A stretch of DNA of 64,000 bases. Origin: Octopus vulgaris (taxonomy: Eukaryota). The translations under genes and the position numbers were made by a program. The notes below the pieces were generated by a model, which was not told where the DNA came from, made no database searches, and worked only from the letters and a program-made list of their open reading frames with translations. Below are positions 35,136-56,115 of this stretch, piece by piece. Positions within the stretch are counted from its first letter, which is position 1. Every line of letters starts with the position of its first letter. The stretch spans positions 9,672,001-9,736,000 of the forward strand of contig OX597830.1 of assembly GCA_951406725.2 (NCBI GenBank), in the 5' to 3' direction.

Positions 35136-35236
<101 letters not shown>

Positions 35237-35851
35237 TTACAGGGTAAATGTTTTTTAAATTTTCTCCTGGTTTACGGAATTGATTTTTATTTGCGGTTGA
35301 AGCTTTGGCTGTTATTTCTAGTGGGTGAATGGCCTATTATGGCCGTTCCTTCATTGTTGATGTTGAACTTAAAAATGGTCTATGACTATTTAATTTTTTC
35401 CCACTAGGCCGCTGGTGGCAAAAAAATTCTACAAATTTTTTTTGCCACCCTATATTGATTAATTATGAATTTTCTGGTTAGTTCCGTAATGGAATCGACG
35501 GCTTATATTTATTTGCTGCCGATAAATTTGGCGCGAGTGCGACGATTTGAAAATTTTAGGTCAGATATAACCTTGGCAAGGTCGGAAATGCCTCGTGAAA
35601 ATATCTGTTCCGACTTGGCTATTTCTTACTGAAGAATCTGAGGGCCTATGGAAGATTGGCTTGATTTAATTTAATCAGGTTAGTTTACCATTAATCAGCA
35701 GATGAAACGGTATATCGTATAAGAAATTACAGGGTAAATGTTTTTTAAATTTTCTCCTGGTTTACGGAATTGATTTTTATTTGCGGTTGAAGCTTTGGCT
35801 GTTATTTCTAGTGGGTGAATGGCCTATTATGGCCGTTCCTTGATTGTTGAT
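35237..35851 (+). mobile_element. Retrozyme-like non-autonomous element: 1.25 copies of a 490-bp monomer inside (TA)n
   Basis: 125-bp direct repeats 35237-35361 and 35727-35851 (one mismatch). Internal hammerhead, several hairpins, no credible ORF, (TA)n on both sides. Confidence 0.8.
35621..35727 (+). ncRNA. Type I hammerhead ribozyme with long loop II
   Basis: Helix I ATTTCTTA/TAAGAAAT; CTGAAGA 35629-35635; helix II ATCTG/CAGAT; GAAA 35704-35707; helix III CG-GTATAT-CG; GTA triplet with predicted cut after 35719. Confidence 0.85.
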
Positions 35852-36372
35852 ATATATATATATATATATGCATTATATGCCTGTGTGCTTTTTTTGTGCT
35901 TGTGTTTGTTTCCACCACTTGTAATCAACCGTTGTTGGTTTGTTTACGTCTTGCAAGCGAGTGGCTCAGCAAATGATAAGTACCAAGCTTTAAGTACTGT
36001 GTTGGACGGCCAGGTGGCCACAGTCCAATGACTGAAACAGCGAATGATAGAAGACTAAAGATCTTACTCTTTTTTTACTCCTTTACTTGTTTCAGTCATT
36101 TGACTGCGGCCATGCTGGAGCACCATACATGTGTATGTGCGTAAATCTGTGTGTGAGTATGTGTGTATGTGTATATAAACATGTATATGCGTGTGTGTAT
36201 GCGTGTATGCACGTATTCATGCGTTTGGGATGGCGCACATATGTAATAAGAGTACTCAATATGTTGTGTAAACCAATATACCGTAATTTTCAAGTTAACA
36301 AAACACTTCAATGTGACACATTTAACACACGAAACACGTGGCCCTTGATATATATACACTTATACATACATA

Positions 36373-52151: not shown

Positions 52152-55100
52152 TATGTCAGGTCTCCGCTTGGAGCTACTGGTAACATGTAACCCAGTACAA
52201 CCTGTTACATGGTCGGGTCGTTGGCGACTAAACTGGCAACCCCACCAAGATTTCTTGGTGAGGAGGGTGATTTGGACACCCAGCAGGACTAAAAACAAAA
52301 CCTGTCAAAGGGCAGAGGAACTCTCTCATGAGTCAATGGCCATCCAAAATCCGGAGTGGAGCCCCTAAGGCGGTTGGATTGCGCCATGCGTGCCACCTTC
52401 CGGCAGCTCCTGCATCTTGGTCTACCCCCAGTCGTCTTGACTTTGTCTTGCCACTGGATCCGGCGCACCAGGACGAGAGAGTGAGGCTGATCCTGCGCAA
52501 GTCACCCTCACTATAATCCAAGTCACGCGCATGTCACGACATCATGACGCCATGACACCGTCCCAAAGTCCTGTGGCGATGGGGAAACGGCGAAGTAGCA
52601 GGTGAGGATACACTGGGAGCTGCAGTCGTGAACCCCACACATGTGGTCGCCCCTCACTGAACTGAGGCAGCAGTGGAGTCCGGCAGCCTCCTGAGTGACC
52701 GAGCAGCCCTCTTCAGGATCACTCTGCTCGCCTCCCCAGCATGAGGACGGGGCTAGAAAAGGTTGCCCTAAACATAGCCTGCCTCACCTCACCCTGGTCA
52801 GCAAACCGCGGCTGGCGGGGATCCTTTCCAAGCGGTCGAAACAAAGAAAGAAGAAAACAAACAAAGGTGCTCACTTTCGCAACTTGGAACGTGAGAACTC
52901 TGCTTGACAACACCAAAGCGGACAGACCAGAGAGACGAACTGCCCTGGTGGCCAGAGAACTGAGCCGATACAGTGTCGATATTGCAGCACTGAGCGAGAC
53001 CCGCCTTGCGGACAAAGGCCAGCTGACAGAGACAGGCGGCGGCTACACTTTCTTTTGGAGTGGTCGCAGCAGCGAAGAGCGTCGTGAGGCTGGTGTTGGT
53101 TTTGCCATTAAGTCAGTACACGTGCGGAAACTGGAAAGCCCCCCCGAGGGTATCAACGATCGGCTGATGAAGATGCAGCTCCCACTTGGAAACAAGACTA
53201 GTGCGACCATCATCAGTGCTTACGCCCCCACCATGACCAACCCTGAAGAAGTTAAGGACAGGTTCTATGAGGAACTCGACTCCCTCATCACGTCAGCCCA
53301 GCCTGGGAAGCTCATCCTCCTTGGGGATTTTAACGCCCGTGTCGGGACTGACCACCAAGCCTGGCATCGCGTACTGGGAAAGCAAGGAATCGGAAAGTGC
53401 AACAGCAACGGACAGCTCCTCCTGCGTGCGTGTGCCTCTCATGATCTTACCATCGCCAACACCTTGTTCCGTCTGCCAACACGCAACAAGACATCATGGA
53501 TGCATCCACGCTCCAAACACTGGCATCTGATAGATTACGTCATCGTCAGGGCGAAAGACAGGCGGGACGTGAGACTGGTCAAAGCCATGTGCGGAGCTGA
53601 CTGCTGGACGGACCATCGCCTCATCATCTCCAGGATGGATTTCTACATCCGACCTAAGAGAAGACCACAGGGTCAGAAAGTGACGAGGAAGCTTAACATC
53701 ACGAAATTAAAGAACCAGCTGACTGCACAAGATCTCCAGTCACGTATGGACAGTAAGCTGTTGGACATTCGGAGTGACCAGTCCAGCATCGATGAGCAGT
53801 GGGAATCATTCAGGGACACGGTTCATTCCATCGCCCTTGAAACTCTGGGCCAAATTACGAGGAACCACCAGGACTGGTTCGACGAAAACGACCAGGAAAT
53901 CCAAAAGCTCCTGGAAGAGAAACGCCGTCTGCTGCGGGCTCACCAAAACGACACCACCTGCACGGCAAAGAAGGCCGCTTTCAACAACATTCGCAGCACA
54001 GTCCAGGCTAAACTCCGCCTCATGCAAGACGCATGGTTAAGCGCCAAGGCGGATGAGATTCAGGGATACGCAGACAAACACGACACCAAGAAATTCTACG
54101 AGGCGCTGAAAGCTGTCTATGGACCGCAGTTCTCCTTTGGATCAACCCCCCTGCTCAGCTCAGATGGAACCTCACTCCTGACTAACAAGAGGCTGATCCT
54201 GGAGAGATGGGCGGAGCACTTCAACATCGTGCTCAACCGACCAGCCCAGATCAACGAGGAAGCCATCGCACGACTCCCCCAGGTGCCGACAAACCACGGG
54301 TTGGCTGTTCCCCCTGCAGTCGAGGAAGTGAGCAGAGCCATCAAAAAAATGTCCACCGGCAAGGCTCCAGGCTCTGACGCCATCCCTGCAGAGGTGTTCA
54401 AGTCGGGCGGCCCCACCATGATCAGTCAGCTCACCAGCCTGTTCCAATCGATGTGGGACAGGGAACAACTCCCTCAAGATTTCCGGGACGCAACAATCGT
54501 CCACATTTATAAGCGGAAAGGAGATCGGCAGTCCTGCGACAACCACCGAGGTATTTCCCTCTTGTCCATAGCAGGCAAGATCCTGGCCCGGGTCCTGCTT
54601 GACCGCCTTCTGGAACACTTGGAGCAAGGCCTTCTCCCTGAGAGCCAGTGTGGCTTCCGTGCGGGTCGAGGGACCACTGACATGATATTCGCCGCCCGCC
54701 AGCTCCAGGAGAAATGCATGGAGCAGCACCTTGACCTCTGCATGACCTTTGTTGACCTCACCAAGGCCTTTGATACAGTCAGTCGGGAGGGACTATGGAA
54801 GGTCATGGGAAAATTTGGTTGCCCCAGCAAATTTATTGCAATTGTCCGCCAGTTCCACGACGGAATGACAGCCAGAATCCTTGAAGACGGCGACTCATCT
54901 GAAGCCTTCCAGGTGACCAACGGAGTCAGGCAGGGCTGTGTCCTGGCCCCAACACTGTTCAGCATCATGTTCTCGGCAATGATGTCCGACGCCTTTAGGG
55001 ACTGCAAGTCCGGTATCAACATCAAGTACAGGACAGACGGGAAACTTTTCAACTCCAGGAGATTGCAGGCTGTCACAAAGGTGAGGGAGACAGTCGTCAG

Positions 55101-56115
55101 AGACTTTCTCTTTGCTGACGACTGCGCCCTTAATGCAATCGATGAGCAGGAGATGCAGCTCGAGATGGACAGGTTCTCATCAGCCTGTGACAACTTCCGT
55201 CTCACCATCAGTGCAAAGAAAACCGAAGTGATGTTTCAGCCAGCCCCCGGCAAACAATACCATGAGCCTCAGATAAGGGTGAACGGACGGATCCTCCGAG
55301 TGGTGGAAAACTTCACCTACCTGGGCAGCACTCTCTCCTGCAATGCCAACATAGATGCTGAAACCATCAACAGAATCTCCAAGGCAAGCAGCGCGTTTGG
55401 GAGACTGCGAAAGAAAGTCTGGGAGCGGAGAGGAATCAGCCTCAACACCAAGCTGAAAGTCTACCGGGCAGTCGTGCTTACCACCCTACTATACGGCTGC
55501 GAGACGTGGACTGCTTACCGAAGGCACGAGCGCCAGATAAACCACTTCCATCTCAGGTGTCTTCGGAATCTCCTTCACATCCGCTGGCAGGACAAAGTCC
55601 CAGACACGGAAGTTCTGAAGCAGGCAGATCTCCCTAGCACCATCACAATCATGCGCAAGGCCCAGCTGAGATGGGCGGGCCACGTCTCCCGCATGTCCGA
55701 CACTCGCATCCCAAAACAGCTCTTCTACGGTGAACTCGGCCAGGGCAGGCGCAAAGTCGGAGGGCAGAAAAAGCGCTACAAGGATAGTCTCAAGGTCTCT
55801 CTCAAAGACTTCTCCATCGGAACAGAGACCTGGGAGACACTTGCTGCCAACCGCTCATCCTGGCGCAGCGCAATCACCGTGGGAGCAGGGACAGCCGAGG
55901 AGGGACGGATTCGGTCAGCGGAGCAGAAACGTCAGATGCGTAAAGTCAGAGCCGCCTGCACCAGTAGCACTGCCCCTACCCACTTCTGCCCCACCTGTGG
56001 GAGGGGCTTCCTTGCCCGGATTGGCCTCACCAGCCACCTCCGGTCTCATGGCGGCAGTTCCATCAGATGATGTCAGTTGGTCATCTTCGAACCGAAGGAC
56101 GAACATTATTATTAT
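52152..56115 (+). mobile_element. Full-length RTE-clade LINE
   Basis: 14-bp TSD TATATAAATTAATT at 52138-52151 and 56116-56129; ~590-bp 5' UTR; single ORF; very short 3' UTR with (ATT)n tail. Confidence 0.95.
52741..56070 (+). CDS. RTE ORF: APE endonuclease + reverse transcriptase + C-terminal CCHH zinc finger (1109 aa)
   Basis: APE motifs TWNVRTL, LSETR, SAYAPT, LGDFNARVG, IDYV, TDH. RT motifs KAPGSD, QCGFRAGR, FVDLTKAFD, GVRQGCVLAP, LFADD, FTYLGS. C-terminal CPTC..HLRSH. No stops or frameshifts. Confidence 0.97.
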   Translation: MRTGLEKVALNIACLTSPWSANRGWRGSFPSGRNKERRKQTKVLTFATWNVRTLLDNTKADRPERRTALVARELSRYSVDIAALSETRLADKGQLTETGGGYTFFWSGRSSEERREAGVGFAIKSVHVRKLESPPEGINDRLMKMQLPLGNKTSATIISAYAPTMTNPEEVKDRFYEELDSLITSAQPGKLILLGDFNARVGTDHQAWHRVLGKQGIGKCNSNGQLLLRACASHDLTIANTLFRLPTRNKTSWMHPRSKHWHLIDYVIVRAKDRRDVRLVKAMCGADCWTDHRLIISRMDFYIRPKRRPQGQKVTRKLNITKLKNQLTAQDLQSRMDSKLLDIRSDQSSIDEQWESFRDTVHSIALETLGQITRNHQDWFDENDQEIQKLLEEKRRLLRAHQNDTTCTAKKAAFNNIRSTVQAKLRLMQDAWLSAKADEIQGYADKHDTKKFYEALKAVYGPQFSFGSTPLLSSDGTSLLTNKRLILERWAEHFNIVLNRPAQINEEAIARLPQVPTNHGLAVPPAVEEVSRAIKKMSTGKAPGSDAIPAEVFKSGGPTMISQLTSLFQSMWDREQLPQDFRDATIVHIYKRKGDRQSCDNHRGISLLSIAGKILARVLLDRLLEHLEQGLLPESQCGFRAGRGTTDMIFAARQLQEKCMEQHLDLCMTFVDLTKAFDTVSREGLWKVMGKFGCPSKFIAIVRQFHDGMTARILEDGDSSEAFQVTNGVRQGCVLAPTLFSIMFSAMMSDAFRDCKSGINIKYRTDGKLFNSRRLQAVTKVRETVVRDFLFADDCALNAIDEQEMQLEMDRFSSACDNFRLTISAKKTEVMFQPAPGKQYHEPQIRVNGRILRVVENFTYLGSTLSCNANIDAETINRISKASSAFGRLRKKVWERRGISLNTKLKVYRAVVLTTLLYGCETWTAYRRHERQINHFHLRCLRNLLHIRWQDKVPDTEVLKQADLPSTITIMRKAQLRWAGHVSRMSDTRIPKQLFYGELGQGRRKVGGQKKRYKDSLKVSLKDFSIGTETWETLAANRSSWRSAITVGAGTAEEGRIRSAEQKRQMRKVRAACTSSTAPTHFCPTCGRGFLARIGLTSHLRSHGGSSIR

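Follow-up and report, generated by a model that had tools for sequence, protein, structure and literature searches.

A two-armed hammerhead repeat family in Octopus vulgaris, possibly copied into AT-repeat tracts by a Penelope-type enzyme

Introduction

A 64,000-nucleotide stretch of the Octopus vulgaris genome (assembly GCA_951406725.2, contig OX597830.1, positions 9,672,001 to 9,736,000; hereafter the window) contains a short insert that carries a hammerhead ribozyme and codes for no protein. How is such a sequence copied, and what places it in the genome? Two kinds of element provide the background. Metazoan non-LTR retrozymes have been shown to form RNA circles, with units of 170-400 nt (Cervera and de la Pena 2020, PMC7229834), and a recent preprint extends the unit range to 51-972 (Li et al. 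2026, bioRxiv 10.64898/2026.07.22.740005). Penelope-like elements (PLEs) are marked by an inverted, 5′-truncated copy and a one-sided tail of 30-40 bp (PMC8557442, PMC3846280). In vitro, the PLE protein of the anole (PAc) cuts and extends both strands of its target, starting at two internal sites of the RNA between which the tail lies; ribozyme cleavage was dispensable, and no difference in start sites was seen between the strands (PMC11167929).

Results

Layout of the window copy

The insert at 35237-35851 consists of a unit (35237-35726) and a re-run (35727-35851) at a repeat spacing of 490, flanked by (TA)n. This agrees with an initial annotation made from the sequence, which had described a 490-nt unit with a 125-nt re-run and one mismatch between them. 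The mismatch is a private variant of the first unit, since unit position 116 is C in 1 locus and G in 62. Unit positions are numbered from 35237, with the predicted cut between unit positions 483 and 484. The features are as follows.

35178..35233, no strand: (TA)n target tract, left (28 copies, 100%)
35233..35251, + strand: left joint (sequence and fold-back test)
35237..35726, + strand: full 490-nt unit (repeat spacing; no open reading frame over 68 codons in natural tandem)
35361..35361, + strand: short-end (B) site, unit position 125, a fixed arm end family-wide, read through in the window copy
35362..35466, + strand: 'tail' of about 105 nt separating the two fixed ends, containing the 35414-35449 hairpin
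35461..35470, + strand: long-end (A) site, unit positions ~225-234, read through in the window copy
35621..35727, + strand: type I hammerhead, predicted cut between 35719 and 35720 (motif search, sequence)
35727..35851, + strand: partial second unit, terminating at the B site
35852..35869, no strand: (AT)n target tract, right (sequence)

The left edge is the 8th base after the predicted cut, in line with the distance of about 8 nt given initially. The author of the initial annotation had no means of seeing that the right edge, at unit position 125, belongs to a pair of fixed priming sites. The partial second unit is presumably where reverse transcription of the window copy began; this copy would be a short-end arm that made 1.25 turns and halted 7 nt before the cut. 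At the left joint, an 8-bp fold-back stem involves the 4 bases preceding the unit and unit positions 8-15, and is likely the snap-back of a cDNA end. Alternatively, the joint may retain 3 nt of a second arm whose priming was near position 231. A joint identical to that of the window copy occurs in locus L052, a longer fold-back in L093, and micro-arms of 12-15 nt in L206 and L225.

Fold z-scores of the unit against shuffles are -5.6 (linear) and -6.4 (circular). The hairpins listed in the initial annotation are present in the predicted fold, with one correction: the 3′ arm of the AAAATGGTC stem had been misread and is actually GACTATTTA, giving a stem of 8 bp with one G-U pair. By unpaired probability, the long-end (A) site is predicted to be mostly single-stranded. 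As an observation made by eye and post hoc, both repeat ends (window 35345-35361 and 35450-35466) and both ends of an autonomous PLE described below (L148) are each preceded, about 17 nt to the 5′ side, by a hairpin or palindrome.

Elsewhere in the window, a short repeat at 36068-36125 reaches a contig depth of over 140,000 in all four sequencing runs discussed below, as a very abundant dispersed repeat. An apparently intact 1123-aa open frame with endonuclease and reverse transcriptase motifs lies at 52699-56070 (+), and we take it to be an RTE-type LINE.

A conserved type I hammerhead

The complete type I hammerhead proposed for the insert was recovered with every part as described. Helix I (8 bp) pairs 35621-35628 with 35720-35727; the core segments are CUGAAGA (35629-35635) and GAAA (35704-35707); helix II pairs 35636-35640 with 35699-35703 and carries a 58-nt insert; and helix III pairs 35707-35710 with 35715-35718 around a palindromic TATA loop, the predicted cut falling after 35719. 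This is the sole such motif in the window on either strand, and 0 of 2000 dinucleotide shuffles of the insert yield a hammerhead under the same rule. The fold z of the ribozyme region is -3.8. A search of Rfam returned no hammerhead match at E up to 10, probably on account of the 58-nt helix II insert.

Of 171 segments from 59 loci, 170 keep the core intact, and variation falls mainly at tolerant positions (N7, H17, the outer helix II pair and loop III). Counted per locus, N7 is found as all four bases and the cut triplet as GUA or GUC (H17). The outer helix II pair is G-C in 41 loci and A-U in 15, a change that may be a single inherited event. Loop III reads TATA (32), TGCA (23) or TACA (4) and is palindromic in 55/59 loci. 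A dimer-type design in which helix III is short and its loop palindromic is described in PMC4209133, and the octopus helix III is predicted at -13.6 kcal/mol as a dimer versus -0.2 as a monomer. The best predicted fold is not the hammerhead, which is 2 kcal/mol costlier, with a helix III probability of about 0.1. Outside helix II, a whole-unit covariation test found 6 compensatory pairs against 3-5 in slid controls and did not beat those controls.

Viroid-like or zeta-like coding circular RNAs are recognised by ribozymes on both strands or by an endless open reading frame. The minus strand of the unit has no hammerhead, and an endless or circular frame is absent, with 8-14 stops per unit across all six frames, even though the common unit length of 492 divides by three.

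A young family across the genome

The host genome is 2.8 Gb and rich in microsatellites. A DNA search yielded 213 matches in 40 of 1378 candidates, almost all at 96-99% identity. Genome-wide, a 38-nt core pattern has 733 exact occurrences (control 0) and the short-end (B) junction 231; the long-end (A) junction has 631 plus-strand matches, one per site on the plus strand, from which we infer about 1,200-1,300 long-end sites and a family of roughly 1,200+ loci. We read 119 loci, comprising the 39 best matches including the window, the first 40 long-end sites on sequence C1 and 40 further short-end sites. Of these, 118 were counted, as L050 (internal duplication) was left out of all arm counts.

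Full units measure 489-499 nt, most often 492 (66/123), and are at least 90.5% identical to the window unit. They are AT-rich with low GC and code no protein, the longest open frame being 68 codons in natural tandem, and arrays reach 9 units per arm. The initial reading of a young, multi-copy, non-coding hammerhead retrozyme is thus supported by the number of core copies, their identity, the intact core and the lack of an open reading frame. The genome-wide copy mapping that it had suggested finds many copies, with 5′ boundaries enriched just past the cut.

Four sequencing runs presumed to be RNA (read as contigs) cover the unit, with depth in run X4 of about 110-620 versus 0-9 in most flank bins, figures from which neither level, strand nor circle can be read. 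The same limit holds for a 472-nt contig that spans the cut site in X14, another of these runs. Among the sequencing runs listed for the repeat, none is recorded as RNA. In the literature that we searched on hammerheads, retrozymes and octopus, we found no description of the 490-nt family or of two-armed retrozymes; the supplements of PMC7229834 or of the preprint may list the family.

Two head-to-head arms with two fixed ends

Most insertions are composed of two head-to-head arms, with 90 pairs in the 118 loci. Arms end in (AT)n in 207 of 213 cases (138/142 in the first set, 69/71 in the second), and because insertions sit in (AT)n, any target-site duplication would be hidden. Of the first 142 arms, 63 end at the short-end site (unit position 125) and 74 at the long-end site (unit positions ~225-234), which leaves a tail of about 105 nt between the fixed ends. 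Full units continue into a next unit or a fixed end.

The pairing of these ends is nearly strict. Across the 90 pairs, 84 are long plus short, 1 is long plus long, none is short plus short and 5 have an off-site end. Sets of loci selected by one end cannot reveal the other homo-pair, whereas the set unselected for ends can. In this unselected set, 28 of 31 pairs are long plus short, 1 is long plus long and 2 are off-site (28/29 classifiable pairs); the corresponding figures are 28/30 for loci chosen by the long end and 28/29 for those chosen by the short end. The two fixed ends, the one-of-each pairing and the AT target are properties of the family, and the layout of two arms with a one-sided tail is the PLE signature of inverted arm plus tail. 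An assembly fold-back artefact is ruled out by the different fixed ends, the asymmetric joints and the unrelated flanks.

Arm 5′ ends accumulate just past the predicted cut

The initial annotation had equated the left edge of the insert with the cut site, which is weak when judged from a single copy. Across the family the claim holds: 56 of 213 arm 5′ ends fall in the 28 nt after the predicted cut, 5.3 times the rate elsewhere, and 14/213 (1.2 times) in the 28 nt before it. The window of positions 484-21 was fixed from the first 142 arms, where it held 32 5′ ends (4.3 times the rate elsewhere), and was then tested on 40 new loci. In this replicate, 24/71 5′ ends fall in the window (7.4 times) and 1/71 in the 28 nt upstream; the 5′ end of L238 is artificial, and it was kept among the 71 arms and falls outside the tested window. 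Counted per locus, the replicate gives 16/40 versus 4.4 expected, and the pooled set 39/118 versus 13 expected.

Pooled over arms, 56 of 312 passages (18%) stop just past the cut and about 82% read through. The simplest reading of this edge would be run-off on ribozyme-cut RNA with some trimming, together with a majority template that has no end there. Stalling at helix I may contribute to the pile-up, as may the AT-rich palindromic stretch at positions 14-21, which could itself favor joints.

A proposed route of copying

On the strength of these sequence patterns, we consider it probable that the repeat is a non-LTR retrozyme family in which both ends of a cut (AT)n receive copies of one RNA, probably a circle, made by a PLE-type enzyme. 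Tandem copies would be transcribed, and the hammerhead, probably as a dimer, would cut between units, after which the monomers would be circularised; the intact core and known retrozymes both suggest this. A PLE reverse transcriptase-endonuclease, probably itself a dimer, is the putative enzyme that would cut both (AT)n strands, with one strand primed at unit position 125 and the other near 230. Both reverse transcriptases would continue round the same RNA for up to 9 turns, the multi-unit arms being observed and the circle being their presumed template. On linear RNA already cut by the ribozyme, reverse transcriptase would reach the end of its template at the cut. Microhomology, snap-back or short templated stutters would finally join the two cDNA ends head to head, possibly through polymerase-theta end joining.

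A more specific version is plausible, and we hold it tentatively. In it, one PLE dimer would bind one and the same 490-nt RNA circle at two places separated by 105 nt and prime both (AT)n ends, both reverse transcriptases rolling round that circle up to nine times, with cut linear RNA as a second template in vivo.

Variants within and between arms

The sequences of the arms bear on the template. The two arms of one locus differ at 353 of 70,945 positions (0.50%), similar to the figure for units within one arm (365/83,364, 0.44%). In 57/57 loci the two arms resemble each other more than they resemble the median other locus, but against the nearest other locus this is so in only 31/57 (4 ties), which therefore identifies the same variant rather than the same molecule. 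Among 124 within-locus variants, 112 are singletons, 8 are present in both arms and 4 recur inside a single arm; in-register partner units share 4/70, and 55 arms cross the cut site twice or more. Variant and array-length counts leave out L036, L037, L047, L092 and L098, plus L050. Repeated copying of one monomer, as on a circle, would fit these patterns better than would copying of a linear array with differing units, or duplication at a later stage; identical units could equally come from a homogeneous linear multimer.

The same two-site PLE priming could instead take place on linear RNA, a long and partly cleaved multimer produced from an array in the genome, making the circle unneeded. We regard this as unlikely, even though run-off at the cut points to cut linear RNA in use, 9-unit genomic arrays exist, and unprocessed RNA was the main PLE substrate in vitro (PMC11167929). 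Differences within a source array should appear in both arms, yet the counts of variants found in both arms and in register are low. An intact ribozyme would also need to remain uncut at many sites, and other metazoan retrozymes accumulate as circles (PMC7229834).

Short PLE-type stumps might also expand later by unequal crossing-over, as the preprint cited above proposes (bioRxiv 10.64898/2026.07.22.740005). This is a known route for satellites and could lengthen the longest arrays, but as an account of the family it is very unlikely: both opposite arms are multi-unit, partial 5′ units lie at scattered positions, and duplication would spread variants to adjacent units, where those common within an arm number 4/124.

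Joints between the arms

Among the first 61 pairs, the majority have short inserts or arms that overlap by 1-13 nt. Joints are near-symmetric in 12/61 versus 6.3 expected and asymmetric in 49/61, and 33 of 213 arms have a self fold-back at the 5′ end. T/A stutters of up to 105 nt adjoin the cut at some joints (L226:3144-3248; also L212, L218 and L227), and may reflect reiterative synthesis at an RNA or cDNA end.

The excess of near-symmetric joints and the 5′ fold-backs are what a single priming would predict if the second arm were a self-primed, fold-back copy of the first, as suggested for PLE inverted ends in PMC3846280. This could account for the joining of arms, not for the origin of both, and we give it hardly any credence. 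Most joints are asymmetric, the second arm has its own fixed end, and either arm can be far longer: the short-end arm is the longer in 20/56 pairs, by over 300 nt in 9, and in L046 a long-end arm of 374 nt faces a short-end arm of 1592 nt, which largely refutes the idea. Since either arm can be the longer, there were two primings, and the short-end arm is no fold-back copy of the other.

Penelope-like elements and a second hammerhead family

That the unit lacks an independent cycle and is just the terminal repeat of an autonomous PLE is suggested by an architecture equal to that of PLE ends and by the fact that 118 of roughly 1,200+ loci were read, but it is scarcely credible, as no PLE open reading frame adjoins the unit in the loci read, full units lead to a next unit or a fixed end, and tblastn matches in 3 loci are separate flank fragments, with none in 40 short-end loci.

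The genome does contain a young autonomous PLE (L139-L149) with a 781-aa open reading frame holding RVT_1 and GIY-YIG domains, 10 of 11 copies being 0.3-1.5% apart. From its Cys linker we take it to be Neptune-like. It ends in (AT)n with a 38-nt tail, and it pairs long and short ends in 7/7 scorable loci of 30, a set chosen by the long end, and in 3/3 others; in the remaining 23/30, no more than one orientation has a recognised end within 3 kb. Comparison of the unit with 50 PLE loci (of 6136 candidates) found no significant similarity, the only hits being a nested repeat copy and weak matches at E 0.03-0.5. The 781-aa PLE and the repeat have no detectable sequence in common, so this PLE is no more than a candidate for the partner. 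The supplement of PMC8557442 lists (TA)n-targeting Naiad elements for Octopus, and these are another candidate.

Several side observations concern these elements. By eye, the terminal repeat of the L139-L149 PLE contains a hammerhead-like motif with a U3-A8 core, a variant named in PMC4209133. Loci L151-L153, L157, L124, L129 and L130 represent at least 4 further PLE families with a C-terminal GIY-YIG. L056 and L189 have repeat insertions nested directly in the (AT)n that adjoins the autonomous PLE on its long-end side, as expected from a common target.

There is also a second, unrelated family of hammerhead repeats (L189-L200, for example L194, G000:C10:45432404-45435821; 2745 candidates). 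It has a type I core, a 468-nt period in L194, an (AT)n target and a 90-nt tail, and 9/12 loci are long plus short by script, in a query that favored such loci. An AT-rich resemblance among the last 15-20 bases of the ends of the three families falls short of significance (best E, for one repeat family against the other, 0.07-0.9).

Discussion

Taken from its sequence features, the 490-nt element appears to have the testable traits of a non-LTR retrozyme and to behave like a non-autonomous PLE. Like metazoan non-LTR retrozymes (PMC7229834, also PMC5680766), it forms dispersed tandem repeats of low GC that carry one type I hammerhead per unit, code for no protein and coexist with PLEs. Its unit lies above the 170-400 nt of Cervera and de la Pena and within the 51-972 of Li et al. 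The two inverted arms, the two fixed ends, the (AT)n target and the run-off at the cut are not described in the accessible parts of PMC7229834 and Li et al. In published retrozymes, as far as those texts extend, the link to PLEs consists of co-occurrence and sequence trees; here it consists of an insertion footprint.

The resemblance to EN+ PLEs extends to head-to-head arms, a tail at one end, a microsatellite or AT-rich target and two internal start sites downstream of the hammerhead. The octopus repeat differs from the published descriptions in having no RT/GIY-YIG open reading frame in the loci read, a tail of ~105 nt rather than 30-40, and two arms that are both multi-unit. It also departs from PAc in vitro, where no strand difference was seen and cleavage was dispensable, in its near-strict use of one site of each kind and in a genomic sign of a cut-RNA template. 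Like the non-autonomous Chlamys PLEs such as MRC1 (PMC8557442), it is non-autonomous and multicopy and has head-to-tail insertions of the kind moved by PLEs. The Chlamys elements, in the description available, have 3′ sequence in common with an autonomous partner and mostly lack canonical hammerheads; the octopus repeat has a canonical hammerhead and, in the 50 PLE loci compared, no significant sequence in common. The points that set it apart from the cited texts are an architecture of two arms made over several turns, the long tail and the edge at the cut; known retrozymes may share these features without having been inspected for them, which limits the novelty.

How PLEs make tandem and inverted tailed insertions, and what purpose the hammerhead serves, are stated open questions in the field (PMC8557442 section 15; PMC11167929). 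That PLEs mobilise animal retrozymes had been argued, in the sources cited, from co-occurrence and trees, and the present family adds the footprint of insertion. It sets three quantitative constraints: the start sites are used once each per event, one RNA variant is found in both arms across several turns, and a sharp edge comes from cut RNA. If the double rolling-circle route is correct, more than a thousand traces of such coordinated, paired reverse transcription would be preserved in the genome, and PLE integration and the role of the hammerhead could be worked out on this unit as a minimal substrate. Together with the 781-aa protein of the young, intact PLE in the octopus genome, the 490-nt non-coding RNA would make a compact system in vitro.
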